NCBI GenBank assembly: GCA_016222915.1
Contig: JACRQA010000142.1
Coordinates: 1 to 57,045 of the forward strand
Length of the DNA: 57,045 bases
DNA from: Nitrospirota bacterium
Lineage (GTDB): Bacteria > Nitrospirota > Thermodesulfovibrionia > UBA6902
Direction of reading: 5' to 3'
Shown here piece after piece: positions 18,543-43,787 of this stretch (positions within the stretch are counted from its first letter, which is position 1; each line of letters starts with the position of its first letter). The position numbers and the translations under genes were made by a program. The notes beneath the pieces were generated by a model. That model saw only the letters and a program-made list of their open reading frames with translations, did not search any database and had not been told where the DNA came from.

Positions 18543-18584
18543 TTGACATAAGTCAAGGATATCCTGCTCAGCCCGGTTTAATAT
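18543..18584 (+). promoter_or_regulatory. FNR/CRP-type palindrome TTGACATAAGTCAA with a correctly spaced -10 (class II activator geometry) upstream of hcp
   Basis: TTGAC-N4-GTCAA at 18543-18556. TAATAT at 18579-18584 lies 29.5 bp from the palindrome centre, as expected for a site centred at -41.5. Confidence 0.5.
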
Positions 18585-18644
18585 AAAACCAGAGAATGAA
18601 AAGATTGCGGACAACGTAATCATATAAACCAAAGGAGGAACACT

Positions 18645-26817: not shown

Positions 26818-27930
26818 ATGAGGATTCAACTTAACATTGATCATATTCAGCATTACCTCAAATCTTTAAGAATGTTTTCCAGATATATTTCCATGTGCTT
26901 GGGTATTCTTAGCATGTTGTCATGTGTTGGAAATGATGTTGTAAAGTCAGAGTCCTCATTTGAATCTGCTCCTTCCCATATATCTTCTGAAAGCGTAATC
27001 GGTGGCACTGGTTCATTTGACCCATTGATAGTTGATAAAAAAATATTAACGGCTTCTTCTAAAGATGTAAATAACAACTTACCCTCTTCTGAGACGTCTA
27101 TTGCATCAGGATATAAGGGGGATTATATTATTGGTCCTGAGGATCTTGTCGAAATAAATGTTTATCAGGTAGAAGAATTAAATCGGACTGCAAGGGTCAG
27201 CTCTAGCGGTCATATCAAATTGCCCCTAGCCGGTACGATAAAGGCATCAGGTCTTACCGCGCCTGAATTGGAAAGCGAACTAAGTAAAAGACTTCAACAA
27301 TATCTTCAGGAGCCGATAGTCAGTGTATTTATTAAGGAATACAGGAGCCAGAGCATAACTGTTCTGGGGGCCGTTATAACACCTCAGGTTTATATTGTGA
27401 CACGTCAGAAGTTTTTAATTGATATGATATCTATGTCTGGTGGGCTTACAAAAGATGCTGGAGATATTTGCTATGTAAGACGGGGGAATGAGACTATTAT
27501 AGTGAATATTAAGGATTTATTAGTTGGAGGAGATATGAGATTGAATATACCTGTTTTTTCTGGGGATCTCATTCATGTTCCTGTGGGAGGAGTTATATTT
27601 GTTGACGGTTCGGTGAATAATCCAGGATCATTTACTATGCAAGGAACAATAACCTTGACTCAGGCTATTGCTATGGCAAAAGGATTTAAATATGAAGCAA
27701 TTAGGGATGAGATTAAAGTATATAGGGATACGGGGAAGGACACAAGAGACATAATCGATATTGATTATGATGCAATCCTAGAAAAGAAATCTCCGGATAT
27801 TTTCTTAAAGGACAAAGACGTTTTAATCGTTCCCAAAAGCGGTGTTAAAGGCTTTTGGAACGGATTTGTCCAATCACTTACCGGGGCCTTTAGGTTTGGA
27901 AGTAGCGTTTCGGTTGGAGCAGGTTTATAA
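26818..27930 (+). CDS. wza: Polysaccharide export outer-membrane protein (Wza-like OPX)
   Basis: Poly_export-type motif (YIIGPEDLVEINVYQVEELN...SSSGHIKLPLAGTIKASGLTAPELESELSKRL) followed by SLBB-like repeats. The internal ATG 26872 gives a lipobox (LSMLSC) and may be the true start. Confidence 0.85.
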   Translation: MRIQLNIDHIQHYLKSLRMFSRYISMCLGILSMLSCVGNDVVKSESSFESAPSHISSESVIGGTGSFDPLIVDKKILTASSKDVNNNLPSSETSIASGYKGDYIIGPEDLVEINVYQVEELNRTARVSSSGHIKLPLAGTIKASGLTAPELESELSKRLQQYLQEPIVSVFIKEYRSQSITVLGAVITPQVYIVTRQKFLIDMISMSGGLTKDAGDICYVRRGNETIIVNIKDLLVGGDMRLNIPVFSGDLIHVPVGGVIFVDGSVNNPGSFTMQGTITLTQAIAMAKGFKYEAIRDEIKVYRDTGKDTRDIIDIDYDAILEKKSPDIFLKDKDVLIVPKSGVKGFWNGFVQSLTGAFRFGSSVSVGAGL

Positions 27931-27983: not shown

Positions 27984-30128
27984 ATGAGTAGAATTGAGGA
28001 TAGCCTGGAAAAAGCAGTAAAATTAAGAACTGCGTCCGCTCCAGCAATACGAAAAGAACCTTTACCCCCTGATTTTTCAAGGTCATATTATGAAGACAGA
28101 GAGAAGCAACCTCACCTGCGAGACTATCTGGATATTCTGATTAGAAGAAAATGGATTGTAATTATTTTCCTGGTCTCAGTTGTTATAACAGGGACGATTG
28201 CAACTTTATTAATGAAGCCGTTATATAAGGCAACGACTACCATACAGTTGGGAAGTGGCAAAGCTGAAATAGTTACATTTAAAGATGTGTATAAAGTTGG
28301 TGGTGATCTTGAAACACAATACGAAATTTTAAATAGTAAGAATCTTGCAGAGAGAGTCGTCACAAGACTATCTTCAATGAATCTAGAAGAAGGTGGGGAA
28401 AAAATTTCAATTGGCGATGTCAAAGAAGGATTAGAAATTGAACCGATAAAGAAAACTGATCTTGTATCAGTTAATTTTATTGCACAGTCTCCAGAAGTAG
28501 CTGCATATATTGCTAATACCGTTGCTGATGAATATGTCAATTTCAGACAGGAGAGCAAGCTCAAGCCTTCGCAATTAGGAGGAATTAGGCTTAGAAAAGA
28601 AGTTGAAGATATAAGGGGCAAGCTTGAAGCCTCTGAAAAACAACTTAACGAATATGTCGCGAAAAGTAATTTTGTCTTTACCAGGAATGATAAAGATTAT
28701 GAAAATCTTCTTGCTCAAAAATATTCAGCACTTGACCAAGAGCTTAATAAGGTAACAGCAGAAAGGATCTCAACGGAAGCTATCTACGAAGAAGTTAAGA
28801 AATCCGGCATAGATTATAATGTTGTCCTTGAAAAGCCCATCATACAGTCTCTTATGAGAGATTATATTAAATTGGAATCCGAGTATTCCAATCTTTTGAT
28901 GATACATAAGCCCGAGTACCCTAAAATGCTTCAGCTCAAAGATCAGATAGAAACTATTAAGAAACGAATCGAAATTGAAGAACAAAATATTATTAATACC
29001 CTGCATTCAGATTATCAGTTGGCATTAAAGAAAGAAAAGTTGTTATCTTCGGCTATAGCAAAACTTCGCCTGGATGTTACGTCTCTTCAAAAGGATATGA
29101 TACAGTTTCAAATATTAAAGAGAGAGGTTGAGACAAACAGGACAATGTACGACACGCTTCTTCAGAGACTAAAAGAAGTCGACATTAGTACAACTCTTAC
29201 TGAAAGTGATGTACAAATTTTGGACAAAGCTCAAGTTCCCAAAAGCCCTTTCAAACCGCAAAAGGCTTATAACATTGCTTTATCATTATTATTTGGAATA
29301 TTTGGCGGTGTGTTTCTGGCCTTCTTTGTAGAGTATTTTGATAATACAATTAAGACTGATGCTGATATAGAAAGAATATCCCGTCTCCCTGTCATTGGTA
29401 GGATTCCCATATCAAAGACAAACACCAAAGAACTAATAAATGATGTCTCAAATGACGACTTGGCGTTTTCAGAGGCATTCAGATCCATAAGCACCGGCAT
29501 GCAATTTTCAAATACTTCGAGACTTCCCAAACCAATCCTAATTACGAGTCCTATGACTCAAGAGGGCAAAAGCACAATCTCGGCAAATATTGCAAAGAGT
29601 CTAATTAACTCACAGAGAAAGGGGATTATCATCGATGCGGACTTAAGAAGACCGGATATTCATGTGTTATATAATCTCGATAATTCTACAGGTCTATCTT
29701 CATATCTAACCGGGGAGTCCAAGTTCGACGCATTAATTAAAAAATCTCCTCACCCCGGTCTCGATGTTATTACAGCAGGCCCCATACCGCCAAATCCTTC
29801 AGAACTCTTAGATTCATCACAAATGAGAGAACTTATTGACGCTCTGTCAGCAGCTTATGATTATATAATAATTGATTCAGCGCCGGTTTTGGGCATGTCT
29901 GATAGTCTGGTCCTGTCAACAATTTCAGAAGGGGTAATATTGGTAGTGAAAGCCCAAAATACCCCTCTGGACGCCTTGACCCAGACTCATAAGGCCTTGA
30001 CGAATATTAATGCTAATACTGTAGGAGTCATTCTTAATGGAGTTGACATTAAATCGGGATATGCGTATTCATCTTATTATAATTCTCCTTACCTGAGTGA
30101 TAATAAGAAAAGTGAAAAATTACTGTAA
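27984..30128 (+). CDS. wzc: Polysaccharide co-polymerase / tyrosine autokinase (Wzc/GumC-like, PCP-2a)
   Basis: Two TM segments flank a long coiled-coil periplasmic domain. C-terminal P-loop (SPMTQEGKST), DADLRRP, and a Tyr-rich tail (GYAYSSYYNSPY). Confidence 0.85.
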   Translation: MSRIEDSLEKAVKLRTASAPAIRKEPLPPDFSRSYYEDREKQPHLRDYLDILIRRKWIVIIFLVSVVITGTIATLLMKPLYKATTTIQLGSGKAEIVTFKDVYKVGGDLETQYEILNSKNLAERVVTRLSSMNLEEGGEKISIGDVKEGLEIEPIKKTDLVSVNFIAQSPEVAAYIANTVADEYVNFRQESKLKPSQLGGIRLRKEVEDIRGKLEASEKQLNEYVAKSNFVFTRNDKDYENLLAQKYSALDQELNKVTAERISTEAIYEEVKKSGIDYNVVLEKPIIQSLMRDYIKLESEYSNLLMIHKPEYPKMLQLKDQIETIKKRIEIEEQNIINTLHSDYQLALKKEKLLSSAIAKLRLDVTSLQKDMIQFQILKREVETNRTMYDTLLQRLKEVDISTTLTESDVQILDKAQVPKSPFKPQKAYNIALSLLFGIFGGVFLAFFVEYFDNTIKTDADIERISRLPVIGRIPISKTNTKELINDVSNDDLAFSEAFRSISTGMQFSNTSRLPKPILITSPMTQEGKSTISANIAKSLINSQRKGIIIDADLRRPDIHVLYNLDNSTGLSSYLTGESKFDALIKKSPHPGLDVITAGPIPPNPSELLDSSQMRELIDALSAAYDYIIIDSAPVLGMSDSLVLSTISEGVILVVKAQNTPLDALTQTHKALTNINANTVGVILNGVDIKSGYAYSSYYNSPYLSDNKKSEKLL

Positions 30129-30163
30129 TAATATAAGTTAAATTGGAAGTTGTAATAATATGT

Positions 30164-30748
30164 ATGGGTGAACAGTTCAGAGCAGAGACAGTTAATGATT
30201 TAAATTTCAGATTTTTTAGCGTGGCAGCCCTCATAAAAAAGGTCAAGAGGGGAATTGGGACAGAAGAACTTTACAGAGAAGCAGAAAGAAAATTTGATAC
30301 ATTAATTGAACTGTTAAGTGATTCAGATATAGATAGAGCATTAATTGCCGGGATTGGGTACTCGCTGGATGAACTCAAAGAGATATCACTTTTAATTTTT
30401 AATCGTATAATTTCTCATACAAGTACAAATCCTTATATTACCCTCTGTGTCTCAGAGGAAGCTTCTTTGGAGGAAATTAAACGTAGGAGGAATAAGCTTC
30501 TATATATATTTCATCCGGATAGAAATCCAAATGAACTTACTAATAAAACCAATACTATGAAAATAAATGAAGCATACAGTCTAATTTCAAATAAGTACTA
30601 TAAAGCAGGCGACCAATTTCGATATGTCAAAACAAGGGGGCCACGTTATCATTCCAGCAGAAAGAAAAAGACGTTCATGTTTTTTATTATTTTAATCATG
30701 TTCATTCTTATTTTCTGGATGGTTATTAAAAGCTGTAATTTATTTTAG
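30164..30748 (+). CDS. Tail-anchored J-domain (DnaJ-like) protein
   Basis: J-domain NPYITLCVSEEASLEEIKRRRNKLLYIFHPDRNP...INEAYSLIS with the HPD tripeptide. C-terminal TM FMFFIILIMFILIFWMVI. ATG 30164 is preferred over the track's TTG 30143. Confidence 0.7.
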   Translation: MGEQFRAETVNDLNFRFFSVAALIKKVKRGIGTEELYREAERKFDTLIELLSDSDIDRALIAGIGYSLDELKEISLLIFNRIISHTSTNPYITLCVSEEASLEEIKRRRNKLLYIFHPDRNPNELTNKTNTMKINEAYSLISNKYYKAGDQFRYVKTRGPRYHSSRKKKTFMFFIILIMFILIFWMVIKSCNLF

Positions 30749-30834: not shown

Positions 30835-32982
30835 ATGCTGGACTTCTTCATGAGCGAAACTGAAAAGAAAGCTCTATTTGATCCCTCTAAGCAAGATATG
30901 AGTCATTTTGTTACAAATATCTATCGGATTATTCAGGACATTATCATTAAGAATAGGCGTTCTGTTTTAATTATTACTCATTTTATACATATAACCCTAG
31001 CATATTATTTATCATTTGTTATCAGATTTGAATCGGTCATTTCTCCGGAATATCTAAATATGATGCTGGCATTTTTCCCCATAATTATGATTATTCGTCT
31101 TATATTATTTTCGCAGGCAGGTCTTTATAAGGACATGTGGGGTTATTCAAGTATTGGCGATATGATTAAGGTCGTAAGATCTATATCAGTTGGAAGTGTT
31201 ATATTTTTTATTGTAGTCAGATATCTGATTGGCAACAAATCATTTCCCGTATCTATTTATATACTCGAATGGCTGCTACTTATTATAATTTCGGGTGGAA
31301 ACAGACTGTCAATACGGGTCTTAAGAGAATACCTGCACGCCAGTTCTTCAGGGAAAAAAATACTTATTGTCGGTGCTGGAGATGCGGGAGATATAATCGT
31401 TAGAGATATAAAAAGCAACCGTAAATCGTCTTATGAACCTATCGGGTTTATTGATGAAGATATCCACAAGAAAGGGCTCAGAATACATGGGGTCCCCATA
31501 TTCGGGCCGATAGACATAATCCAGGAAGTTATAGAAAAGCATAAACCGGAAGAAGTATTGATCGCTTTATCTTCTATGGATAATAATAACATCAGAAGGA
31601 TTTATGAACTTTGCAAACCATACAATATAGGTATAAAAAAGCTGCCGGAATTAAATGAAATACTTGAGGGTAATTTTGCCATTACGAAAAAACTCGGTGA
31701 GCATTTGGTCCAGGCAAACCTTGTAACCGAGGAGAAAATACAGGAGGCCTTAGCCCTCCAAAAGAAAGAAGGTGGACGGCTTGGATCAAAACTTATAAAA
31801 CTCGGATATATTTCAGAAGAAAGACTTGTCTCATTTCTTAATAAGCAATTTGGTATTTCACATATGAAACCTATCTCACTTGAAGACCTCTTACAGAGGG
31901 AACCGGTGCAGACAAATATTCAATCGGTGAAGAAATTTATTGAGAATAAGTCTGTTATGGTCACCGGCGCCGGGGGTTCAATCGGGTCGGAACTTTGCAG
32001 GCAGATAATGAAGTATTATCCCTCCAATTTAGTACTCTTTGAAAGATATGAGAATAATCTATTCAAAATCGATCAGGAACTAACGGCAATCAGAAATAAT
32101 AATGGAGAGGTCCATATTCCGATTACACCTGTTATTGGAGATATAACGGATATAGCGTCATTAGAACATGTATTTTCAAAATACAGGCCGCAGATAATTT
32201 TTCATGCCGCTGCACATAAGCATGTGCCTTTAATGGAATATAACCCGATTGAGGCTGTGAAGAATAATATTATAGGAACAAAAAATGTCATAGATTATGC
32301 TTCGGAATACAATGCTGATAATTTTGTAATGATTTCTACAGATAAGGCTGTAAATCCGACAAGTATCATGGGAGCGACTAAACGTATAGCCGAATTTTTA
32401 GCTACAACAAGAAATATTTCTTCAGATTCCAAGTTCACAACTGTAAGATTCGGGAATGTCCTTGGGAGCAACGGAAGTGTCATCCCGACATTTAAACAAC
32501 AAATCAAAAATGGAGGTCCGGTAACAGTTACACATCCTGATATTAAAAGATTCTTTATGCTCATTCCTGAAGCTGTGCAACTGGTATTATTGGCCGCCTC
32601 ATCAGGGAATGGAGGAGAGATATTTGTCCTGGACATGGGAGAACAGATAAAGATCGGGGCACTGGCAGAAAATCTTATAAGACTCTCAGGTTTTATTCCC
32701 AATAAGGAAATAAAGATCAAGTATACAGGATTAAGACCAGGAGAAAAACTATATGAAGAGCTTTTTGATAAATCAGAAAAAACTACCCCTACATTTCATC
32801 ATAAATTCAAAATGGCTATCCCGGAAATACCTTCCTATGATTTACTTATGAAATATATATCTGAACTTGAGAACATTGTTCAAAATAACGAATTGGATAA
32901 GATAATACCTACTATCAAAAAAATAGTTCCGAATTTCCAGCATGAAGAAATTTTACAGGCAGATTATAGGATGATAATATAG
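30835..32982 (+). CDS. CapD/WbpM/PglF-like membrane-anchored NDP-sugar 4,6-dehydratase with an inserted MshEN-like segment
   Basis: N-terminal TM bundle. First Rossmann-like segment (KILIVGAGDAG). C-terminal SDR (VTGAGGSIGSEL, STDKAVNPTSIMGATKR). Between them lies KLGEHLVQANLVTEEKIQEALALQ-KKEGG-RLGSKLIKLGYISEERLVSFLNKQ. Confidence 0.85.
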   Translation: MLDFFMSETEKKALFDPSKQDMSHFVTNIYRIIQDIIIKNRRSVLIITHFIHITLAYYLSFVIRFESVISPEYLNMMLAFFPIIMIIRLILFSQAGLYKDMWGYSSIGDMIKVVRSISVGSVIFFIVVRYLIGNKSFPVSIYILEWLLLIIISGGNRLSIRVLREYLHASSSGKKILIVGAGDAGDIIVRDIKSNRKSSYEPIGFIDEDIHKKGLRIHGVPIFGPIDIIQEVIEKHKPEEVLIALSSMDNNNIRRIYELCKPYNIGIKKLPELNEILEGNFAITKKLGEHLVQANLVTEEKIQEALALQKKEGGRLGSKLIKLGYISEERLVSFLNKQFGISHMKPISLEDLLQREPVQTNIQSVKKFIENKSVMVTGAGGSIGSELCRQIMKYYPSNLVLFERYENNLFKIDQELTAIRNNNGEVHIPITPVIGDITDIASLEHVFSKYRPQIIFHAAAHKHVPLMEYNPIEAVKNNIIGTKNVIDYASEYNADNFVMISTDKAVNPTSIMGATKRIAEFLATTRNISSDSKFTTVRFGNVLGSNGSVIPTFKQQIKNGGPVTVTHPDIKRFFMLIPEAVQLVLLAASSGNGGEIFVLDMGEQIKIGALAENLIRLSGFIPNKEIKIKYTGLRPGEKLYEELFDKSEKTTPTFHHKFKMAIPEIPSYDLLMKYISELENIVQNNELDKIIPTIKKIVPNFQHEEILQADYRMII

Positions 32983-33180: not shown

Positions 33181-33954
33181 ATGAAAGTTGTAATTCTTGC
33201 CGGTGGATTTGGCACCCGTTTGTCTGAAGAGACGGGCGTACGTCCAAAGCCGATGGTAGAGATAGGTGGAAGACCCATTCTCTGGCATATCATGAAAATA
33301 TATACGGCCTATGGTCTAAATGATTTTATTATTTGTCTTGGTTACAAAGGTTACTTTATCAAAGAGTATTTTTCCAAGTATTTTCTACACATGTCGGATA
33401 TTACTTTCGACATCAAAAATAACAGCATGCAGGTACATAATAATGATGTTGAACCGTGGAAGGTCACTTTGATTGATACCGGTGAGAAGACGATGACGGG
33501 AGGACGTCTTAAACGAGTCGCGGATTATATTGGCAATGAGCCGTGCTGTTTTACTTATGGAGACGGTGTTACTGATTTGAATATTAATGAATTAATAGCC
33601 TTTCATAAAACTCAAAAGTCGCTGGCTACGTTAACTGCAGTTCAGCCGCCGGGAAGGTTCGGGGTCATTAATATAACCGAAGATCATAACAGGATACTGA
33701 GTTTTAAAGAGAAGCCTAAAGGCGACGGCTCCTGGGTAAATGCAGGCTTCTTCGTATTGGAGCCAGGCGTGTTTGATTATATCTCGGATGATTCAACTAT
33801 ATGGGAACAGGAGCCGATGCATAATCTGGCAAATGACGGAATGTTATCGGCTTTTAGACATTACGGTTTTTGGCAGCCTATGGATACCTTGCGCGACAAG
33901 TCTTACCTTGAAGAAATTTGGAACTCTGGGAAAGCGCCGTGGAAAGTATGGTAA
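33181..33954 (+). CDS. rfbF: Glucose-1-phosphate cytidylyltransferase
   Basis: MKVVILAGGFGTRLSEETGVRPKPMVEIGGRPILWHIM... Length 257 aa, typical of RfbF. Confidence 0.9.
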   Translation: MKVVILAGGFGTRLSEETGVRPKPMVEIGGRPILWHIMKIYTAYGLNDFIICLGYKGYFIKEYFSKYFLHMSDITFDIKNNSMQVHNNDVEPWKVTLIDTGEKTMTGGRLKRVADYIGNEPCCFTYGDGVTDLNINELIAFHKTQKSLATLTAVQPPGRFGVINITEDHNRILSFKEKPKGDGSWVNAGFFVLEPGVFDYISDDSTIWEQEPMHNLANDGMLSAFRHYGFWQPMDTLRDKSYLEEIWNSGKAPWKVW

Positions 33955-33958
33955 TTGG

Positions 33959-35158
33959 GTGAAAAGCGCGGACTTCGTCGTCATAGGCGGCGGGATAATA
34001 GGCGTTAATGTGGCGCGGGAACTGAAAAAAATATATCCCGATTCCAAAGTGGTTTTGATGGAAAAGGAAAAGGAGTGCGGCTTGCATGCAAGCGGCCGGA
34101 ACAGCGGTGTTCTGCATGCCGGATTCTATTATTCAAGTGACAGCTTAAAGGCGAGATTTACCCGAACCGGCAATAAGCTGTTAACTGAATATTGTGAAGC
34201 TAAAAATATTGCAATTAATAAGTGCGGCAAATTAGTTGTTGCTATGGATTCGAGTGAGCTCAAGTCCCTTGATGAACTGTTTAAAAGGGGCAAATTAAAC
34301 GGCATTGATTTGGAGGAAGTTTCAGAAGAAGAGGCAAAGAGAATAGAGCCCCGTGTCAAGACGTGCGGCAGGGCGCTTTTTTCTCCGACAACGTCAACAG
34401 TTGATCCGATGGAAGTCATGCAAGCGATGAAACATGATGCTGTTAGTGAGGGGGTGGGAATTCATTCTGATGTGTGTTTCATTAAAAAAAGATCACAAGA
34501 CATATTCACCTCTAAAGGCGCTTATCGGGCGGGCTACATAGTGAATGCCGCCGGCCTTTATGCAGACAAAATTGCCCTGGAGTTCGGGTTCTCGGAGAAG
34601 TATCGCATTCTCCCCTTTAAAGGTCTTTATTTATATTCTAATGAACCGGCGGGAGCTATTAAAACAAATATATACCCCGTCCCAAATCTGAAGAATCCAT
34701 TTCTTGGAGTTCATTTTACAGTCACTGTAAATGGTAAAATCAAAATAGGTCCGACTGCCATACCGGCCTTCTGGCGTGAGCACTACGGAGGGCTTGAAAA
34801 TTTCAAATTATCTGAAATGGCCGAGATATTAATGAGAGAAGCAGGCCTGTTCGCTTCCTCCGGGTTTGATTTTAAGAGGCTGGCGTTAGAAGAAATAAAG
34901 AAGTACTCAAGTGAAAGAATGGTATCATTGGCATCAGCGCTTATAGAGGACATTAAAAAAGAGAACTATAACAAATGGGGCAAACCCGGAATACGAGCAC
35001 AATTGCTGAATATAAAAGAGAGAAAGCTCGAAATGGATTTTGTGCTTGAAGGTGATGATAAGTCTATGCATGTATTGAATGCGGTTTCTCCGGCTTTTAC
35101 GTGTTCAATTCCATTTTCACAGTACATTTGCAAAGAAATACAATCACGATTAAATTGA
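33959..35158 (+). CDS. FAD-dependent oxidoreductase (DAO family, LhgO-like)
   Basis: DFVVIGGGIIGVNVAREL dinucleotide fold, then GLHASGRNSGVLHAGFYY. GTG 33959 is used as the start. The track's 33740 start would overlap rfbF by 215 nt. Confidence 0.75.
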   Translation: MKSADFVVIGGGIIGVNVARELKKIYPDSKVVLMEKEKECGLHASGRNSGVLHAGFYYSSDSLKARFTRTGNKLLTEYCEAKNIAINKCGKLVVAMDSSELKSLDELFKRGKLNGIDLEEVSEEEAKRIEPRVKTCGRALFSPTTSTVDPMEVMQAMKHDAVSEGVGIHSDVCFIKKRSQDIFTSKGAYRAGYIVNAAGLYADKIALEFGFSEKYRILPFKGLYLYSNEPAGAIKTNIYPVPNLKNPFLGVHFTVTVNGKIKIGPTAIPAFWREHYGGLENFKLSEMAEILMREAGLFASSGFDFKRLALEEIKKYSSERMVSLASALIEDIKKENYNKWGKPGIRAQLLNIKERKLEMDFVLEGDDKSMHVLNAVSPAFTCSIPFSQYICKEIQSRLN

Positions 35159-35177
35159 GAAAGTAAGAGGACCAACT

Positions 35178-36239
35178 ATGAAAATACTGATTACCGGCAA
35201 TATGGGTTATATCGGTCCGTGCGTTGTGCAGAGATTACGGGTTTCGTTTCCCGATGCGACGCTCTTAGGGCTTGATATGGGATATTTTGCAAACTGTCTT
35301 ACAAATGCGGTAATCCTGCCTGAATGCAGGGTGGACGCGCAATATTTTACAGACGTGAGAAATATTTCCGAAGAGTTGTTCAGAGGCGTGGATGCTATAG
35401 TTCATCTTGCCGCAATATCAAATGATCCCATGGGCAACACGTTTGAAAAAGTGACATTTGATATTAATCATATGGCAAGTATAGACCTGGCAAAAAAAGC
35501 TAAGAGCGCCGGGGTGAAAAGCTTTGTTTACGCATCAAGCTGCAGCATGTACGGCGCTGCCGATGACGGGCCGAGAAGCGAAAAGTCCCCGGTCAATCCT
35601 CTTACTGCATATGCAAAATCCAAGATTGCCACCGAGAACGATCTTGAAAAAATAGCGGACAGCGGCTTTAAAGTGACATCCCTCAGATTTTCAACTGCAT
35701 GCGGCTTCAGTGAGAGGTTAAGGCTGGATTTGGTGTTGAATGATTTCGTCGCATGCGCGGTTTCTTCTAGAAAGATTACTATCCTAAGCGACGGCACTCC
35801 CTGGAGGCCGTTGATAAATATTAAAGACATGGCAAGAGCGATAGATTGGGCCATCAGCAGGGAGCCGCAAAATGGCGGAGCTTTTCTTGCAATAAACATC
35901 GGAAGCGATGTCTGGAACTACCAGGTCAAAGAGCTTGCTGAGGCAGTGGCTGAAGTCATTCCCGGGGTGGAAGTCTCAATCAACAAGAACGCCCAGCCTG
36001 ATAAGCGCTCATATAGGGTAAGCTTTAAACTGTTTAAGGAATTGGCCCCGGAATATCAACCGGAAGTAAGCCTTAAAGAAACCATCCAGGAATTAAAAAA
36101 TGGCCTGGAAGCAATGAACTTCAGCGACGGGAATTTCCGGAACTCCGGATTCATGAGATTGAAGGTATTGACCCATTTGAGGGAACAAGGTCTTTTGACG
36201 GAGAATCTTGAATGGGCAAAGAATGGGAGCAAGACATAA
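35178..36239 (+). CDS. NAD-dependent epimerase/reductase (extended SDR)
   Basis: ILITGNMGYIG, SSCSMYG and YAKSK catalytic motifs. Lacks the TDE signature of 4,6-dehydratases. Confidence 0.8.
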   Translation: MKILITGNMGYIGPCVVQRLRVSFPDATLLGLDMGYFANCLTNAVILPECRVDAQYFTDVRNISEELFRGVDAIVHLAAISNDPMGNTFEKVTFDINHMASIDLAKKAKSAGVKSFVYASSCSMYGAADDGPRSEKSPVNPLTAYAKSKIATENDLEKIADSGFKVTSLRFSTACGFSERLRLDLVLNDFVACAVSSRKITILSDGTPWRPLINIKDMARAIDWAISREPQNGGAFLAINIGSDVWNYQVKELAEAVAEVIPGVEVSINKNAQPDKRSYRVSFKLFKELAPEYQPEVSLKETIQELKNGLEAMNFSDGNFRNSGFMRLKVLTHLREQGLLTENLEWAKNGSKT

Positions 36240-36241
36240 TT

Positions 36242-37549
36242 ATGAATTTTTCAAAATCTGATCTGCTTCGTAAAAGATTTCACGAAATTATTCCCGGCGG
36301 ATCTCATACCTATGCCAAAGGCGACGACCAATTCCCGGAGTTTTTACAGCCATACATTGTCCGCGGGCAGGGCTGCCACGTTTGGGATGCGGATGGGAAT
36401 GAATTTATTGAATACGGCATGGGACTACGCGCTGTTACACTCGGCCATGCATACAAGCAGGTTACCGATGCCGCCTGTAAGCAAATGCTCATGGGCAGTA
36501 ATTTTATAAGGCCGGCATCTATCGAACTGGAATGCGCTGAAGAATTATTATGCATGATCAGTGGCGCGGAAATGGTGAAGTTCGGTAAAAACGGATCTGA
36601 TGTCACAAGCGCGGCAATAAAACTTTCGAGGGCTTATACCGGAAGGGAAATGGTTGCCATCTGTAAGGACCACCCTTTCTTCTCAGCAGACGATTGGTTT
36701 ATAGGCACAACGCCCATGTCGTCCGGGATACCCAACGCGATTAAGGACTTGACTATAAAATTTCCATACAATGACGTTGAAAGCCTTAAAGCGCTCTTCA
36801 GCCAGTATCAAGGTAAGATAGCTTGTGTAATTTTAGAACCTGAAAAAGACAGAGTGCCTGAGAATAATTTTTTACAAGAGGTCCAACAGGTATGCAGAGA
36901 GAACGGGACGGTTCTTATATTTGATGAAATGATTACCGGATTTCGCTGGCATAACGGAGGAGCGCAGGGTTATTACGGAATAACGCCGGATTTATCAGCC
37001 TTTGGAAAAGCCATGGGCAACGGGTTTTCCGTGTCTGCGCTTACAGGGAAAAAAGAACTGATGAAGCTGGGAGGGCTTGACCACGACAGAGAACGGGTCT
37101 TCCTGCTGTCTTTGACCCATGGAGCGGAAACTCATTCATTGGCAGCCGCGATAGAGACAATGAGAACATATAAAAATGAACCGGTAATAGATGTTCTCTG
37201 GGCGCAGGGGGAAAAGCTGGCCAAAGGAATCAATAAGTCCATCGATGAATATAAGCTTAACGGTCATTTCGAAGTCATGGGAAAACCTTGCTGTCTTGTT
37301 TATACGACGCGGGACCAGGACAAGCAGCCTTCTCAACACTTCAGGACATTGCTTCTTCAGGAAACCATCAAGCGCGGCCTGCTTGCAACGAGTCTTGTAG
37401 TCAGCTATTCACACGATGATGCGGACATTGACAGGACAGTAGCGGCATTTCATGAAGCCTTATATATTTACCGGAAGGCGCTGGATGAAGGTGTCGAAAA
37501 ATACCTTGTCGGAAGACCCGTAAAACCGGTATGGCGCAAACATAATTAA
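36242..37549 (+). CDS. Class-III (GSA-aminomutase-like) PLP aminotransferase
   Basis: IPGGSHTY, FDEMITGFR, and SAFGKAMGNG (PLP Lys). ATG 36242 lies 3 nt after the preceding stop. Confidence 0.8.
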   Translation: MNFSKSDLLRKRFHEIIPGGSHTYAKGDDQFPEFLQPYIVRGQGCHVWDADGNEFIEYGMGLRAVTLGHAYKQVTDAACKQMLMGSNFIRPASIELECAEELLCMISGAEMVKFGKNGSDVTSAAIKLSRAYTGREMVAICKDHPFFSADDWFIGTTPMSSGIPNAIKDLTIKFPYNDVESLKALFSQYQGKIACVILEPEKDRVPENNFLQEVQQVCRENGTVLIFDEMITGFRWHNGGAQGYYGITPDLSAFGKAMGNGFSVSALTGKKELMKLGGLDHDRERVFLLSLTHGAETHSLAAAIETMRTYKNEPVIDVLWAQGEKLAKGINKSIDEYKLNGHFEVMGKPCCLVYTTRDQDKQPSQHFRTLLLQETIKRGLLATSLVVSYSHDDADIDRTVAAFHEALYIYRKALDEGVEKYLVGRPVKPVWRKHN

Positions 37550-37551
37550 CA

Positions 37552-38805
37552 ATGGAGCTCACGATGACAAATAAGAATTGCCTGTGCAGATATTGCGGAC
37601 ATCAGTTGGAACACACCTTTGTAGACCTGGGCATGTCGCCGATGGCGAATTCATATCTGAGAGCGGAACAGCTTCAGAAGATGGAGCCTTTTTACCCGCT
37701 TCATACCTATGTTTGCGGTAAATGCTTTCTTGTGCAACTGCAGGAATTCGAGTCTCCTGAAAATATTTTCGGTGATTATGCCTATTTCTCTTCATATTCC
37801 GACTCATGGCTGAAGCACGCAAAAGACTATACTGACATGATGACCCGAAGGTTTGGATTTGACGCAGGCAGCCGTGTCGTCGAGATAGCGAGCAATGACG
37901 GTTATCTGCTTCAGTATTTTAAAGAGAAAGGCGTTCCTGTGCTGGGCATTGAACCGGCGGCGAACGTGGCTCAGGCTGCAATAGCAAAACAAATCCCGAC
38001 GCTGGTGAAATTTTTCGGAGTAAAGACCGCGGGGGAACTGGCCGCTGATGGCAGGCATGCCGACCTGATTATCGGAAACAATGTATTGGCCCACGTGCCG
38101 GACCTCAATGATTTTGTCAGCGGATTAAAAGTCCTTTTGAAACCGCAGGGAATCATTACCATGGAGTTTCCTCACCTGATGAGATTAATGGACGAGAACC
38201 AGTTTGACACTATCTATCATGAGCATTTTTCGTATTTTTCATTTATCACGGTCAGCAAAGTCTTCACCTCGCATGGTCTCAAAATATTTGACGTGGACGA
38301 ATTACAGACACACGGCGGGTCATTGAGAATCTATGCCGCTCATGAGGAAAATGCATCAAGGCCTGTTGAGAAACGGGCGCATGAACTTATTCATAAAGAA
38401 GAGGGCAGGGGGTTCGCTGCAGTAGAACTCTATTCCACATTCAACGAAAAGGTCAAGGAAACAAAGAGGGCCATCCTTGATTTCATGATTAAAGAAAAAA
38501 GAAGCGGGAAGTCTTTCGCGGGTTACGGCGCTCCGGCAAAAGGAAATACTCTTTTGAATTACTGCGGCATCAGGACGGATTTTATCGACTATACCGTTGA
38601 TCGAAGTCCCCACAAACAAGAACATTCATTGCCGGGTGTCCACATCCCGATTTACGGACCTGAAAAAATAACTGAAACGAAGCCGGACTATCTGGTCATC
38701 CTCCCCTGGAATCTTAAAGATGAGATTATGGAACAGATGTCTCATATACGTTCATGGGGTGGTAAATTTGTAGTGTTGATCCCCGAAGTGCAGGTAATTG
38801 ATTAA
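37552..38805 (+). CDS. NDP-sugar C-methyltransferase-like SAM enzyme (TylC3/NovU-type architecture)
   Basis: N-terminal Zn-ribbon (CRYCGH...CGKC), SAM fold (VVEIASNDGYLL) and a C-terminal C-methyltransferase-like domain. Confidence 0.8.
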   Translation: MELTMTNKNCLCRYCGHQLEHTFVDLGMSPMANSYLRAEQLQKMEPFYPLHTYVCGKCFLVQLQEFESPENIFGDYAYFSSYSDSWLKHAKDYTDMMTRRFGFDAGSRVVEIASNDGYLLQYFKEKGVPVLGIEPAANVAQAAIAKQIPTLVKFFGVKTAGELAADGRHADLIIGNNVLAHVPDLNDFVSGLKVLLKPQGIITMEFPHLMRLMDENQFDTIYHEHFSYFSFITVSKVFTSHGLKIFDVDELQTHGGSLRIYAAHEENASRPVEKRAHELIHKEEGRGFAAVELYSTFNEKVKETKRAILDFMIKEKRSGKSFAGYGAPAKGNTLLNYCGIRTDFIDYTVDRSPHKQEHSLPGVHIPIYGPEKITETKPDYLVILPWNLKDEIMEQMSHIRSWGGKFVVLIPEVQVID

Positions 38806-39336
38806 GTGATCTTTAAGGAAACAAAATTAAAAGGCGCGTATATAATCGAACCGGAAAGATTTGAAGACGAGCGTGGCTTCTTTGCGCGCACATGTTGCAA
38901 GAGAGAGTTTCAGGATCACGGGCTGAATTTTCATGTGGCGCAATGCAATATCTCCTTCAATAAGAGCAAAGGTACTTTAAGAGGAATGCATTACCAGGCA
39001 GGTCCTCATGCTGAGGCAAAGTTGGTCAGATGTACTCAGGGATCTATTTATGATGTAATTATTGATCTGAGGCCGGAGTCAAAGACTTATAAAAATTGGT
39101 TCGCCGTTGAATTGAATAAAGATAATCGTAACATGCTTTATATACCCGAACATTTCGCACATGGTTTCCTTACATTGGAAGATCATGCCGAAGTGTTCTA
39201 CCAAATGTCCGAGTTTTATAACGCAGAAAGTACACGTGGGGTCCGGTGGGACGATCCCGCGTTTTCCATTCATTGGCCGGCCGCTGTAAGCGTCATATCT
39301 GGCCGGGACCGGGATTGCCCGGATTTTGAATCATGA
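38806..39336 (+). CDS. RmlC-like cupin (NDP-4-keto-6-deoxyhexose 3,5-epimerase family)
   Basis: ERFEDERGFF...RGMHYQ...KLVRCTQGSIYDVIIDLR...FAHGF. Confidence 0.85.
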   Translation: MIFKETKLKGAYIIEPERFEDERGFFARTCCKREFQDHGLNFHVAQCNISFNKSKGTLRGMHYQAGPHAEAKLVRCTQGSIYDVIIDLRPESKTYKNWFAVELNKDNRNMLYIPEHFAHGFLTLEDHAEVFYQMSEFYNAESTRGVRWDDPAFSIHWPAAVSVISGRDRDCPDFES

Positions 39337-40673
39337 GAACAGATACAAGTATGCAGATATATGATCTCAAAAAGACGATCGACCTGAACATTGCTTCTCA
39401 GGAAATGTTTGAGCTTATGCATAAACTATATCCCATTTGCCGCAGCATCACCGGAAATGGTTTTAGGGACACACTGAAAATAATCCGGGAGTATGTCCCG
39501 CTCAAAGTGCATGAGATACCCACGGGGACAAAGGTCTTTGACTGGACAGTGCCGAAGGAATGGAACATAAACGATGCCTATGTCAAGAATTCAAAAGGGG
39601 AGAGGGTAATAGATTTCAGGAAATCCAATTTGCACATTATGGGCTATAGCGTGCCTGTTCAGGACAGGATGCCGTTATCAGAATTAAAAAAACATCTCCA
39701 TACCTTGCCTGATCATCCCGACTGGATACCGTATAGAACTTCATACTACAGGGATGATTGGGGTTTTTGTCTGAGTCATAATGAAATGCATAAGTTTGAA
39801 GAAGACACCTACGAGGTATTCATTGATTCTTCACTTGAGGATGGCCATTTAACTTATGGTGAGTATTTTATAAAAGGAGAGAGCGAGCAGGAAATCCTGC
39901 TGTCATGCCATGCCTGTCACCCGTCTCTTTGCAACGATAATGTAGCTGGCATGGCTTTGACATCCTTACTTGGTAAATATTTAAACCAGCTGACCCTGCG
40001 TTATTCATGCCGCATACTCTTCATTCCCGGCACAATCGGATCGATAACGTGGCTTTCCCTGAACGAAGCGACTGCGCGGAACATTAAGCACGGACTTGTT
40101 GTTACATGTGTCGGCGACCCCGGCATGTCTACATATAAGAGAAGCCGTACCGGGTATGCTGAAATAGATAGCGTCGTTGAACATGTGTTGGAACATTCCG
40201 GCAGTCCGTACCGTGTAGTCGATTTTTCACCTTATGGCTATGATGAAAGGCAATACTGCTCTCCGGGGTTTAACCTTCCGGTCGGCTGTCTTCAGAGAAC
40301 GCCTCACGGAGAGTATCCTGAATATCATACGTCAGCGGACAATTTTGATTTTGTGAGGCCGGAGTATCTGGCGGATTCATTTTCGAAGTATCTTTCCGTC
40401 CTGAATATCCTTGAAAACAACAAAGTCTATCTCAATACAAATCCGAAGTGCGAGCCTCAATTGGGGAAAAGAGGTTTGTATACCACTACCGGCGGCAAAA
40501 GCCATACAGTTGCCGATCAAATGGCGCTGCTGTGGACCCTGAATTTGTCGGACGGTCAGCATAACTTACTCGACGTCGCGGAAAAATCAGGGATTTGGTT
40601 CGATGATATTTATGAAGCGTCCCGCGCCCTGCTAAGGACCGGTTTATTGGAGGAGAGTTTGTGCGGGAAGTAA
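39333..40673 (+). CDS. Aminopeptidase-like domain protein of polysaccharide loci (COG4310 / DUF2172-DUF4910 type)
   Basis: LYPICRSITGNGFRDTL...IPTGTKVFDWTVPKEWNINDAY...SNLHIMGYSVP matches my recollection of this family. ATGA overlap with the preceding gene. Confidence 0.7.
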   Translation: MRTDTSMQIYDLKKTIDLNIASQEMFELMHKLYPICRSITGNGFRDTLKIIREYVPLKVHEIPTGTKVFDWTVPKEWNINDAYVKNSKGERVIDFRKSNLHIMGYSVPVQDRMPLSELKKHLHTLPDHPDWIPYRTSYYRDDWGFCLSHNEMHKFEEDTYEVFIDSSLEDGHLTYGEYFIKGESEQEILLSCHACHPSLCNDNVAGMALTSLLGKYLNQLTLRYSCRILFIPGTIGSITWLSLNEATARNIKHGLVVTCVGDPGMSTYKRSRTGYAEIDSVVEHVLEHSGSPYRVVDFSPYGYDERQYCSPGFNLPVGCLQRTPHGEYPEYHTSADNFDFVRPEYLADSFSKYLSVLNILENNKVYLNTNPKCEPQLGKRGLYTTTGGKSHTVADQMALLWTLNLSDGQHNLLDVAEKSGIWFDDIYEASRALLRTGLLEESLCGK

Positions 40674-41461
40674 TCGGTTTAGTCCCGGCAGCGGGAACAG
40701 CATCTCGAATAGCCCCACTTCCATGCAGCAAAGAATTATATCCTATTGGCTTTCGTTCAACTAATAACGGCAGCGAGCTGAGGCCGAAAGTCGTAACGCA
40801 TTATCTCCTTGAAAGTTTGCGGTCGGCAGATGTCACGAAGGCGTATATCATATTGCGTGAAGGTAAATGGGATATTCCCAAATATTTCGGTGACGGGAAG
40901 ATGATAGATATGGACCTGGCCTACCTCATGATGGATTCACCCTATGGAGTGCCTTTTACACTTGATCAGGCATATCCGTTTGTAAAGGATGCCCTTGTAG
41001 CGCTGGGATTCCCTGATATAATTTTTGAACCGGACGATGCATACAGAAAATTATTTATAAAACAGACTGAAACAAATGCCGACATAGTACTGGGACTCTT
41101 TCCCACCCTGCAAAAGCATAAAACGGATATGGTTGAACTGGATGAGCGCGGTACAGTGTGTGCTATTCATATAAAACCTGAAACTACGAAGCTGGTATAT
41201 TCATGGGAGATTGCTGTCTGGACCCCGGCATTCACGAAATATATGCATGATTATATTGCAGCAAAGAAAGAAAATATCATTGATTTCCATTGTCAAAAAG
41301 AACTGTTTGTAGGGGACGTGATCCAGGCTGCGATCAGGGACGATATGTATATAGAATCCGTAATTTATCAAAACGGAAATTGCATAGATATCGGAACTCC
41401 TGAAGATATGGTCAAAGCTGCTTATATGTCAAACCGGGTTTTGAAGGACAATAGCATATGA
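40661..41461 (+). CDS. Sugar-phosphate nucleotidyltransferase
   Basis: GLVPAAGTASRIAPLPCSKELYPIG matches the NTP_transferase N-terminal signature. GTG start overlaps the preceding gene by 13 nt. Confidence 0.7.
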   Translation: MREVIGLVPAAGTASRIAPLPCSKELYPIGFRSTNNGSELRPKVVTHYLLESLRSADVTKAYIILREGKWDIPKYFGDGKMIDMDLAYLMMDSPYGVPFTLDQAYPFVKDALVALGFPDIIFEPDDAYRKLFIKQTETNADIVLGLFPTLQKHKTDMVELDERGTVCAIHIKPETTKLVYSWEIAVWTPAFTKYMHDYIAAKKENIIDFHCQKELFVGDVIQAAIRDDMYIESVIYQNGNCIDIGTPEDMVKAAYMSNRVLKDNSI

Positions 41462-41510
41462 CAATTATGCTTCAGCGGAACGGGACAACGGCTGTACTGA
41501 AAGGATTAGG

Positions 41511-42389
41511 ATGAATTTTATTAAGAGAACATTACAAAAATTTAATGATGCTCTGGACATAAAAACAGATAGCAACACATTAACCGTTATTGACCCCATA
41601 ACGAGATGGCAAAAAAGAGATTTCAGTGAATTGGTTGAATATCGGGACCTGTTTTTTTTATTTGCCTGGCGTCAAATAAAAGTTATGTATGCACAAACGA
41701 TATTGGGGTTTTCCTGGGCTATATTGAAACCTTTTGTACAAATAGTTATTTTTACTATTATTTTCGGAACGGTTGCCAAAGTGCCCACGGAAGGGGTACC
41801 CTATTTTCTTTTTTCATGCGCTGCAATCGTCCCCTGGAGTTTTATATCGCAGGCAATTTCCGAATCTAGTCAGAGCCTTATTACCAACTCAGGAATGTTG
41901 GGAAAGGTCTATTTTCCCAGGGTGATCTTTCCATTAACGCCTGTCTTCTCCAGGCTGATTGATTTTGGAATTTCTATGCTTATTGTATTATGTGCCATGC
42001 TGTATTATCATGTTTATCCCACACGGAACCTGCTACTCTTTCCATTGTTCGTTTTTACTATGATGCTTGTTCCTACCGGTATCGGCCTGTGGTTGTCTTC
42101 TCTTGCTATAAGGTATCGGGATGTTAACCATGCAATGGTCTTTATTATTCAAATGCTTGTTTACACCGCTCCTATCGTATATTCCGCATCATCTATACCG
42201 GCAAAATATCGCTATCTATATTCACTGAATCCGATAGTCGGAGTAATAGAAGGATTCAGGGCCTGTTTGCTCGGGACACCAGTGCCATGGTCGTATATAA
42301 TTCCTGGAGTCATCACATCCGTTATTCTAATTATCACTGGAGCAATTTATTTCAAGCGTATGGAAAAGATCATAGTTGACGTAATATAG
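41511..42389 (+). CDS. wzm: ABC-2 type polysaccharide exporter permease (Wzm/KpsM-like)
   Basis: About six TM segments. Conserved N-terminal LVEYRDLFFLFAWRQIKVMYAQTILGFSWAILKP. Confidence 0.85.
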   Translation: MNFIKRTLQKFNDALDIKTDSNTLTVIDPITRWQKRDFSELVEYRDLFFLFAWRQIKVMYAQTILGFSWAILKPFVQIVIFTIIFGTVAKVPTEGVPYFLFSCAAIVPWSFISQAISESSQSLITNSGMLGKVYFPRVIFPLTPVFSRLIDFGISMLIVLCAMLYYHVYPTRNLLLFPLFVFTMMLVPTGIGLWLSSLAIRYRDVNHAMVFIIQMLVYTAPIVYSASSIPAKYRYLYSLNPIVGVIEGFRACLLGTPVPWSYIIPGVITSVILIITGAIYFKRMEKIIVDVI

Positions 42390-42419
42390 CAAGACAAGCA
42401 GTCGATCTCAAGGAGTGAA

Positions 42420-43787
42420 ATGAGCAATATAAGTTTATCAATTAAGGCTGAAAATTTAGGCAAGTGCTACCGCATAGGCGTAAAAGAGAACATGCATGAC
42501 AGCCTTGCAAAAAGTATATTTAATTTCGTGAAAAGTCCGGTAAAAAACTATCAGAAGCATCGCTCACTTTATAATTTTGATGACGTAATACAAGGCGCAG
42601 AAGGCAACACTTCCGATGTAGTTTGGGCCTTGCGGGACGTTTCCTTTGAGATAAAGCAAGGGGAGGTTGTTGGGATAATCGGCATCAACGGCGCAGGGAA
42701 ATCAACTCTTCTGAAGGTCCTTTCCAGAATTACAAACCCAACAAAAGGGTATGCAGAGATTCGTGGGAAAATATCAAGCCTCCTGGAGGTGGGCACCGGC
42801 TTTCATCCTGAACTCACGGGCAGGGAAAACATTTATCTTAACGGCACCATTCTTGGAATGAGAAGCAAGGAGATAGACCGCAAATTTGATGAGATTGTGG
42901 ACTTTTCAGGAGTGGAAAAGTTCATCGATACACCCGTTAAGCGTTACTCCAGTGGTATGAAAGTTCGACTGGCCTTCGCTGTTGCGGCCCATCTGGAGCC
43001 TGAAATACTGCTTATAGACGAGGTGCTTGCAGTCGGAGATGTGCGGTTTCAGAAGAAATGTTTAAACAAGATGGAGGACGTAAGCCAGCATGGAAGGACC
43101 GTCCTTTTTGTGTCACATAATATGCAGGCGGTGACCCGGCTTTGTCCACGGACCATTCTCCTGGGGAATGGTACACTGCTGGCTGACGGACCATCGCATA
43201 AAATAGTTAATCTCTATATGGATTCCGAAAAAGGGCTTAAAGATGAACGTGAATGGCCTGATCTCAGTGAGGCCCCTGGGGATGATGTGGTCCGGCTGTG
43301 TGCTGTTCGGGTCCGCTTAGAGAATGGCAGGCTTACAGACGCCGTTGACATTCGTAAACCTGTTAGCATTGAGATGGAATACGAGGTGCTTCAGCCTAAG
43401 CAGGTGTTGATGGTCTACTATCATGTTGTTAACGAAGAAGGTCTTGAAATATTTACAGCCATTGATAACGACCCTACCTGGCGCAAGCGCGAGCGGCCGG
43501 TTGGACGGTATGTAAGCACAGTCTGGATTCCAGGGAACTTCCTGTCGGAGGGGATACTATATATCGGTCCGGGAATATACAGCCTGGATCCGTATATGAA
43601 ACATTTTAGCTTCAACGACGCTGTTTCATTCCAGATAATCGACAGCTTGGATGGTGACACGGCGCGCGCAGATTTTGTGGGCAACATGAATGGTGTGATC
43701 AGACCGATGTTGAAATGGGAAACTCATTATGGTCCACGGGGATCACATAACGAAGAAGCAATGGCAACCAGGAACAAATCAAGATAA
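42420..43787 (+). CDS. wzt: ABC polysaccharide exporter ATPase with extra C-terminal (Wzt_C-like, glycan-end-binding) domain
   Basis: Walker A GINGAGKST, signature YSSGMKVRL, Walker B LLIDEVLAVGD, plus a ~200-aa C-terminal extension. Confidence 0.85.
   Translation: MSNISLSIKAENLGKCYRIGVKENMHDSLAKSIFNFVKSPVKNYQKHRSLYNFDDVIQGAEGNTSDVVWALRDVSFEIKQGEVVGIIGINGAGKSTLLKVLSRITNPTKGYAEIRGKISSLLEVGTGFHPELTGRENIYLNGTILGMRSKEIDRKFDEIVDFSGVEKFIDTPVKRYSSGMKVRLAFAVAAHLEPEILLIDEVLAVGDVRFQKKCLNKMEDVSQHGRTVLFVSHNMQAVTRLCPRTILLGNGTLLADGPSHKIVNLYMDSEKGLKDEREWPDLSEAPGDDVVRLCAVRVRLENGRLTDAVDIRKPVSIEMEYEVLQPKQVLMVYYHVVNEEGLEIFTAIDNDPTWRKRERPVGRYVSTVWIPGNFLSEGILYIGPGIYSLDPYMKHFSFNDAVSFQIIDSLDGDTARADFVGNMNGVIRPMLKWETHYGPRGSHNEEAMATRNKSR

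Follow-up and report, generated by a model that had tools for sequence, protein, structure and literature searches.

The locus described here raises the question why an enzyme that prepares a nucleotide sugar should carry, in its middle, a segment resembling the receptor for cyclic diguanylate (c-di-GMP) of MshE and related ATPases. c-di-GMP is the signal that tells bacteria to settle down and build biofilm. The locus lies on a contig of 57,045 nucleotides from a Nitrospirota bacterium (JACRQA010000142.1, assembly GCA_016222915.1), which was analysed over its whole length and is called the window below. The gene in question (30835..32982, plus strand) is an open reading frame (ORF) of 715 amino acids (aa), whose product is assigned to the membrane-anchored nucleoside diphosphate (NDP)-sugar 4,6-dehydratases of the PglF/WbpM/CapD class. 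Between its CoA_binding_3 domain (aa 95-265) and its Polysacc_synt_2 domain (aa 374-660), bases 31690-31857 of the plus strand translate to KLGEHLVQANLVTEEKIQEALALQ-KKEGG-RLGSKLIKLGYISEERLVSFLNKQ-FGI (aa 286-341). A sequence-only reading of this stretch had taken the peptide for tandem MshEN-type motifs inserted into a CapD/PglF-like sugar dehydratase, and both halves of that description have been borne out. Judged by profile searches, alignment and structure prediction, the insert is a complete 53-residue MshEN_N module, that is, a receptor of a type known to bind c-di-GMP, and ligand binding is predicted for it here.

The module consists of two 24-residue motifs and a spacer. Motif I (KLGEHLVQANLVTEEKIQEALALQ, aa 286-309, 31690..31761, plus strand) aligns with residues R9-Q32 of MshE, and motif II (RLGSKLIKLGYISEERLVSFLNKQ, aa 315-338, 31777..31848, plus strand) with residues R38-Q61; the translation places the five residues KKEGG (aa 310-314, 31762..31776, plus strand) between them. 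NCBIfam model NF053729.1 ('cyclic di-GMP-binding domain, MshE-related'), which describes the c-di-GMP motif in 53 positions, matches aa 286-338 over its entire length (profile positions 1-53 of 53) with 62 bits (E 3.4e-17), the curated cutoff being 38 bits. When the insert segment alone was used to search the PDB, Thermus thermophilus PilF (E 5e-20), Geobacter PilB (E 1e-9) and Vibrio cholerae MshE (5HTL, E 1e-9) were found, and a profile made from 32 inserts of the family matched 5HTL at E 4e-14 over MshE residues 7-64. A six-frame scan of the window with the relaxed motif of Wang et al., in which position 10 was widened from [GAS] to [GASND], gave three matches, two of them being motifs I and II, five residues apart. 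The third match (32865-32936, minus strand) runs across a stop codon and was dismissed as spurious, which leaves no other genuine motif match in the window; a chance match of the motif pair is ruled out by the E value of NF053729.

Structure prediction agrees with the profile searches. Modelled alone with AlphaFold, the insert folds into a four-helix bundle with a predicted local distance difference test (pLDDT) score of 88-95 in its core. A Foldseek comparison of this model with the PDB ranked 5HTL first (probability 1.00, root mean square deviation 1.3-2.2 Å, 41-44% identity), and ranks 1-10 were without exception MshEN/GSPII domains. The same four helices are found in the full-length AlphaFold model (mean pLDDT 82.5), where they stand between the Rossmann-like domain and the catalytic short-chain dehydrogenase/reductase (SDR) domain.

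The enzyme that carries the module could be assigned with similar clarity. Its N-terminus is a membrane anchor of about four hydrophobic helices (aa ~41-167, 30955..31335, plus strand), which are long helices in the AlphaFold model. The membrane-proximal Rossmann-like domain is recognised by Pfam as CoA_binding_3 (PF13727, E 1.5e-13; 31117..31629, plus strand), and strands and helices alternate over aa ~174-269 of the full-length model; this N-terminal layout agrees with that described for WbpM. The SDR catalytic domain (Polysacc_synt_2, PF02719, E 7.7e-120; 31954..32814, plus strand) contains the nucleotide-cofactor-binding glycine motif TGAGGSIG (aa 377-384, 31963..31986, plus strand, located by a regular expression), which is unchanged in all of 79 homologues. 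It also contains the catalytic signature TDKAVNPTSIMGATK (TDK...Mx3K, aa 502-516, 32338..32382, plus strand), spaced as in PglF according to the alignment with 5BJU. TDKx(n)Mx3K defines the PglF/WbpM dehydratases, in which a methionine stands in place of the catalytic tyrosine (PMC8987622). Together with the PDB match to PglF (5BJU, E 5e-90) this signature secures the CapD/PglF-like assignment made earlier. The NCBIfam equivalogs PseB and FnlA scored far under their cutoffs, thus the dehydratase does not belong to the inverting subfamilies. On these matches the host protein is a membrane-anchored UDP-HexNAc 4,6-dehydratase of the PglF/WbpM/CapD class, for which conversion of UDP-GlcNAc to UDP-4-keto-6-deoxy-GlcNAc is predicted. 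In the recorded gene call for the same contig (P0032, 468 aa) the protein begins at M248 of the full ORF (P0001), and with that start the membrane anchor is lost together with most of the Rossmann-like domain. From 30835 onwards the frame is open, and the homologues are full length; the short start is probably a start-site error of the gene caller.

If the module is to bind c-di-GMP, the residues that contact the ligand in MshE should be recognisable in it. Thirteen of the 15 key MshE positions are kept identical in the insert. In motif I the correspondence is R9=K286, L10=L287, G11=G288, D12=E289, G18=N295, L25=I302, L29=L306 and Q32=Q309, and in motif II R38=R315, L39=L316, G40=G317, G47=G324, L54=L331, L58=L335 and Q61=Q338. 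Each key residue of motif II is therefore the same as in MshE. The description of motif II as complete, of motif I as having K for R and N for G, and of the spacer as five residues long is in full agreement with this alignment and with the translation. The contact set present in the insert comprises K286-L287-G288, I302, L306 and Q309 of the first motif and R315-L316-G317, L331, L335 and Q338 of the second, and the guanine-contacting features are kept at both half-sites.

Conservation was computed over 99 distinct inserts of the family. The backbone-donor glycines G288 and G317 are invariant, as are L306, Q309, L320 and L335 (insert positions 3, 32, 21, 24, 35 and 50, respectively), and variation is conservative at L287 (L, I or F), L316 (L, I or V) and L331 (L, M or F). 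Position 1 of the insert is K in 83 and R in 16 sequences, position 30 is R in 89, K in 6 and M in 4, and surface positions vary with an entropy above 2 bits. The spacer K/K/E/G/G is nearly fixed in the family (E in 91 and each G in 97 of the 99 sequences); in MshE the spacer was called non-conserved.

The lysine that opens motif I deserves comment. In PilF GSPII-B the first position of motif I is likewise a lysine (K167), the dissociation constant (KD) for c-di-GMP is 6 nM, and the K167R substitution makes binding 25-fold weaker (PMC11731258). A lysine is also found in D. geothermalis PilB2 (13.5 nM) and C. thermophilum PilB (53 nM), and the published consensus has been extended to (R/K/L)LG... 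(PMC11731258). Because the same lysine occurs in the nanomolar binder PilF GSPII-B, K286 is by analogy not a defect of the insert.

It must be noted that Pfam PF05157, which the sequence-only reading had suggested as a check, the lack of a match counting against its claim, did not recognise the module, either on the whole protein (E<=1) or on the isolated insert (E<=10). The reason became clear from three PilB-like ATPases fetched from genomes as controls. In these, the 53-residue insert hidden Markov model (HMM) and the 90-position model PF05157.20 ('MshEN') matched consecutive segments: aa 5-57 and aa 58-144 in the first (L013, 8774-10579), aa 30-82 and aa 83-169 in the second (L015, 415-2181), and aa 7-59 and aa 61-149 in the third (L045, 1771-3471). 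PF05157 aligned only past the 53-residue motif, therefore the current model covers only the alpha/beta subdomain MshEN_C (T2SSE_N1). We thus rejected the miss as evidence against MshEN identity, since the model starts directly after the 53-residue motif, and the proposed check turned out to be uninformative. For the same reason the label T2SSE_N (PF05157) given to the segment was not apt: only the MshEN_N subdomain, which PF05157 does not model, is there, and on these alignments the proper name of the module is MshEN_N-only, not T2SSE_N or full MshEN. Fusions of this kind are invisible to Pfam-based surveys; NCBIfam NF053729 can detect them.

How did the module come to be in the dehydratase? 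To define its borders, HMMs of the flanking domains were applied to loci retrieved by scanning 185,579 species genomes. The linker between the two domains is 45-48 aa long in 52 ordinary PglF-like proteins and 104 aa long in 10 insert-bearing ones. In the alignment the difference is a single gap of 58 residues, between ...GN(F/I/V)(A/S) and (I/V)S(H/Q)MKPISLEDLL. Linker lengths and alignment together define an insertion of 58 residues relative to ordinary PglF-like proteins (aa 283-340, 31681..31854, plus strand). The peptide had been located correctly at 31690-31857; the block that was actually inserted is this slightly shifted one, 31681-31854. The crystallised PglF construct (5BJU) starts just past the insertion point, residue 346 of the query corresponding to residue 3 of the chain. 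Extended tblastn and phmmer alignments seemed to indicate half-inserts in several sequences (L032, L055, L063, L024, L052 and P0261); their linkers all have the usual 46 residues, the HMM matched none of them, and the apparent half-inserts were set aside as alignment over-extension.

Every one of the 120 best-matching protein clusters formed at 90% identity carries the insert, their identity to the query ranging from 57 to 100%, so that the family comprises at least 120 such clusters. The source names of the carriers are in the majority Nitrospirae/Nitrospirota, and include Thermodesulfovibrionales, Candidatus Sulfobium, Planctomycetes, Candidatus Scalindua and candidate division WS5. Among 1.84 billion representatives clustered at 50% identity only five combined the insert with flanks of PglF type, and two of these (P0123 and P0124) are clearly full length; the estimate at this level is about three full-length clusters, plus fragments. 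By this measure the insert-bearing family is compact. In a set of 5.8 billion proteins the insert profile retrieved none of the fusions, the candidate filter favouring short PilB/GspE fragments, and the cluster totals are to be read as bounds. When only the SDR domain was used for a neighbour-joining tree, all 27 insert-bearing tips fell in one clade with no insert-free tip inside, and the closest insert-free relatives were from Thermodesulfovibrionales, at 65% identity. The topology indicates a single insertion event. Outside the fusions, the insert itself is closest to the N-termini of GspE/PilB proteins of Nitrospirota, Thermodesulfovibrionales and Methylomirabilis (45-62% identity). These relationships suggest a local donor, which was probably the N-terminus of a GspE/PilB-type ATPase of the same or a neighbouring lineage.

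The dehydratase gene heads a conserved glycan cluster. Upstream of it, all on the plus strand and all identified by Pfam, are genes for a Wza-type exporter (26818-27930), a Wzc-like chain-length/tyrosine-kinase protein (27984-30128) and a DnaJ-domain membrane protein with a hydrophobic C-terminal tail (30143-30748). The order Wzc, DnaJ-domain membrane protein, dehydratase was seen again in two related loci (L001 and L004). Downstream (33181..43787, plus strand, Pfam) follow sugar-nucleotide pathway genes and a Wzm/Wzt ATP-binding cassette exporter. The pathway includes a cytidylyltransferase-like protein, an FAD oxidoreductase, an epimerase/dehydratase, an aminotransferase, a C-methyltransferase, an RmlC-like protein, a DUF4910 protein and a second nucleotidyltransferase. 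The part at 33181-41461 (plus strand), in which the aminotransferase is of class III and the RmlC-like protein an epimerase, looks like a CDP/NDP-sugar route whose product would be an amino or deoxy sugar with a C-methyl branch. Gene order downstream of the fusion gene is kept in 11 Nitrospirota genomes. In Candidatus Scalindua the fusion gene is solitary, with no glycan cluster around it. The window was found to contain neither an initiating phosphoglycosyl transferase nor a DegT aminotransferase. Scans for promoters and terminators near the dehydratase gene gave nothing remarkable, and Rfam recognised no RNA element in the window at gathering thresholds, including the c-di-GMP riboswitch.

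A variant from Nitrospiraceae is instructive with respect to the place of the enzyme in its pathway. Dehydratase, aminotransferase and initiating transferase form a classic module of glycan biosynthesis. In the 897-aa protein P0124 (MDA8172480.1; L080:10001-12694 and L081:4851-7544) a PglC-like phosphoglycosyl transferase (Bac_transf) is fused to the N-terminus, so that the order is PglC-like transferase, Rossmann-like domain, MshEN_N insert and PglF-type SDR domain. At its loci a DegT aminotransferase gene lies directly upstream, a sigma54 response regulator gene downstream, and a GAF-GGDEF gene about 8 kb upstream. The fusion and the upstream DegT gene therefore support a function of the enzyme in supplying the first sugar of a lipid-linked glycan.

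Other parts of the window can be described briefly. Directly after the glycan cluster a giant ORF of at least 3601 aa (46241-57043, plus strand) continues beyond the 3' end of the window; an alkaline-phosphatase domain at its N-terminus is accompanied by Big_5/Big_7 Ig-like domains and by nine Calx-beta repeats, and the product is presumably a very large protein of the cell surface. Unrelated to the insert are a hybrid-cluster (prismane) protein with an adjoining Crp/cNMP-binding regulator on the minus strand (17779-20288) and, farther upstream, a 1415-aa BadF/BcrA-type activase (9838-14085, minus strand).

It is useful to compare the insert with the known systems to which it is related. With the MshEN_N domain of V. 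cholerae MshE (PDB 5HTL; Wang et al. 2016, PMC5013675) it shares the two 24-residue motifs and the five-residue spacer that add up to 53 residues, most of the key residues and the four-helix fold. In MshE, however, the module is N-terminal to a T2SSE ATPase and MshEN_C/T2SSE_N1 follows it, whereas here it is internal, in the linker of an enzyme, lacks that subdomain, and has K for R9 and N for G18. T. thermophilus PilF GSPII-B (PDB 8PDK; PMC11731258) also opens motif I with KLG, and its lysine stacks on the guanine; it differs in that its motif II opens with L instead of R, in that the C-terminal subdomain is kept, and in that the protein regulated is a pilus ATPase. Escherichia coli NfrB (PMC8669469) is the one characterised case of MshEN fused to a polysaccharide-biosynthesis enzyme (GT2), and c-di-GMP reportedly activates the enzyme domain allosterically. 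The regulated enzyme of NfrB is a polymerising glycosyltransferase and not a dehydratase, and the receptor is a full C-terminal MshEN and not an internal MshEN_N-only module. Methylobacillus EpsG resembles our protein in having an MshEN_N-only module on a polysaccharide-assembly protein, an AAA_31 chain-length/tyrosine kinase (Wang et al. Supplementary Table 4); our insert can be aligned with NCBIfam TIGR03029. EpsG differs in that its module stands at the N-terminus and is joined to a kinase, whereas the Wzc-like kinase encoded in the window has no MshEN motif. Finally, Campylobacter jejuni PglF, Pseudomonas aeruginosa WbpM and Staphylococcus aureus CapD have the same layout of anchor, Rossmann-like and SDR domains and the same TDK...Mx3K signature, but none has the 58-residue insert.

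The fusion had been presumed uncharacterised, and this view is consistent with what we found: it is absent from the literature searched and from the architecture table of Wang et al. (2016), which lists eight MshEN_N-only architectures, none with a Polysacc_synt_2/CapD partner (PMC5013675). In the full-text literature, closed-access articles not being covered, nothing relevant ties MshEN to a dehydratase, CapD, PglF, WbpM, FlaA1 or Polysacc_synt_2; the co-mentions of 'epimerase' and MshEN refer to WecB in the NfrB system. No description of a receptor module for any second messenger in a nucleotide-sugar dehydratase was found in the literature searched. The parts are known and detectable by an existing curated HMM; their combination and the topology of an internal insert appear to be undescribed.

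What might the module do in the dehydratase? On balance we favour the view that the MshEN_N receptor in the linker switches the output of the enzyme in response to c-di-GMP. One molecule of c-di-GMP would be bound by the module, and the affinity would be sub-micromolar, possibly nanomolar. In MshE one guanine pocket is shaped jointly by L10, where motif I starts, and by L54 and L58, where motif II ends (PMC5013675), thus both ends of the insert should be clamped to one another by the ligand. The clamped ends would fix the geometry of the catalytic domain relative to the membrane-proximal domain, and the fixed geometry would switch the output of the enzyme, on more likely than off; activation is favoured by analogy with NfrB, whose MshEN domain reportedly activates the glycosyltransferase. 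What is switched could be catalysis itself, or else the coupling of the enzyme with the initiating phosphoglycosyl transferase. At high c-di-GMP the 4-keto-6-deoxy-HexNAc precursor would then be released for the first sugar of a surface glycan. More tentatively, and with somewhat less than even confidence, we suggest that c-di-GMP directly and allosterically switches an SDR enzyme that modifies a nucleotide sugar: a four-helix 'clasp', closed by the ligand, would turn on the first committed step of surface-glycan synthesis.

Several observations speak against the proposed switch. The soluble C-terminal half of WbpM alone is fully active (PMC8987622). The linker is therefore not required for catalysis as such, so that coupling or localisation is a likelier target of control than the chemistry, and we take seriously the alternative that assembly, or the coupling with the transferase, is what is controlled. 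Neither the window nor any of 14 other fusion loci was found to contain a diguanylate cyclase gene, the one GGDEF gene being found near the transferase-fused variant only. The MshEN_C (T2SSE_N1) subdomain is not present, the inserted block being only 58 aa long, and in PilF the C-terminal subdomain of MshEN_C type adds to c-di-GMP affinity (PMC11731258); isolated MshEN_N(1-62) of MshE binds c-di-GMP without the C-terminal subdomain, with a KD of 0.35 µM, and MshEN_N-only architectures were recognised by Wang et al. (2016, PMC5013675). The pLDDT of the insert in the full-length model (~68-81) is below that of the insert modelled alone. The carriers are metagenome-assembled genomes or metagenomic contigs throughout, with no isolate among them. 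Finally, N295 at turn position 10 of motif I, where MshE has G18, is outside the strict consensus as well as the relaxed one, which permits [GAS] at this position (Wang et al., PMC5013675). Asparagine is the second commonest residue at position 10 in 142 otherwise intact non-fusion MshEN_N domains (G in 89, N in 19), and within the insert family the turn position is N in 66, G in 11, D in 9 and K in 9 sequences. The four residues N, G, D and K are all compatible with a turn, and the AlphaFold models keep the turn at N295; motif II carries G324 at the corresponding position.

The substitution of this turn glycine is also one of the arguments for regarding the insert as a ligand-blind MshEN_N relic that serves as a structural spacer or as a helix bundle for oligomerisation or protein docking. 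The terminal Q of motif II is replaced by H, Y or T in ~30% of the family, and there is precedent for such a fate: non-binding MshEN homologues exist, namely XpsE and PilF GSPII-A (the latter PMC11731258), and there are N-domains of GspE/XpsE that have lost c-di-GMP binding. The known non-binders, however, bear many substitutions at contact positions, seven in the case of XpsE (G11V, L29R, R38G, G40L, L54H, L58C and Q61V), whereas the 99 inserts show no replacement, or a conservative one, at both backbone-donor glycines, all cluster leucines and Q309. The conservation of the insert family is unlike that of non-binders such as XpsE, with their many disruptive contact changes. Considering also that the NF053729 match is full length and 24 bits over the cutoff, we find a relic improbable. 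That the module senses another nucleotide, for example 3'3'-cyclic GMP-AMP (cGAMP), is very unlikely. V. cholerae MshEN does bind cGAMP weakly, but it is specific for c-di-GMP over c-di-AMP, and cGAMP is the weaker ligand (PMC5013675); all guanine-contacting features are, moreover, kept at both half-sites of the insert.

It is also conceivable that the insert binds c-di-GMP without regulating catalysis, and mediates c-di-GMP-dependent assembly or localisation, or buffers the messenger; as docking partners one might think of the initiating phosphoglycosyl transferase, the Wzc-like kinase or a local diguanylate cyclase. The activity of the soluble catalytic half of WbpM without the N-terminal region (PMC8987622) fits this explanation, as does NfrB, which acts via a physical complex with a specific cyclase (PMC8669469). 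A subgroup of the family is covalently joined to a PglC-like transferase, so that closeness to the transferase seems to matter, and the gene stands directly behind those of the Wzc-like kinase and the conserved DnaJ-domain membrane protein. On the other hand, the module is inside the linker of a two-domain enzyme, a typical position of allosteric inserts that leaves it no free terminus; no conserved partner was found, and the gene of Candidatus Scalindua is solitary. Weighing these points, we consider a purely assembling or buffering role rather unlikely, and retain as our preferred explanation a c-di-GMP-dependent switch of dehydratase output.

The characterised cases of c-di-GMP control over exopolysaccharides concern synthases and glycosyltransferases, transcription, and secretion, BcsA, Alg44, PelD and PgaCD being further examples. 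At the level of glycosyltransferases NfrB is a checked case of such control (PMC8669469). A receptor in a nucleotide-sugar dehydratase would put control at the commitment of the precursor, and, if the proposal is true, this would be a new regulatory tier upstream of glycosyltransferases, synthases and exporters. In the variant fused to the phosphoglycosyl transferase the switch would govern glycan initiation on the lipid carrier. It would also follow that MshEN_N is usable as a portable internal insert. With its 58 residues and clean boundaries, the exact deletion of which should restore the canonical linker, the module is an attractive and testable allosteric cassette. For the organisms that carry it, the fusion would provide a c-di-GMP output in Nitrospirota and anammox Planctomycetota, groups that are important for nitrogen cycling and for biofilm reactors.

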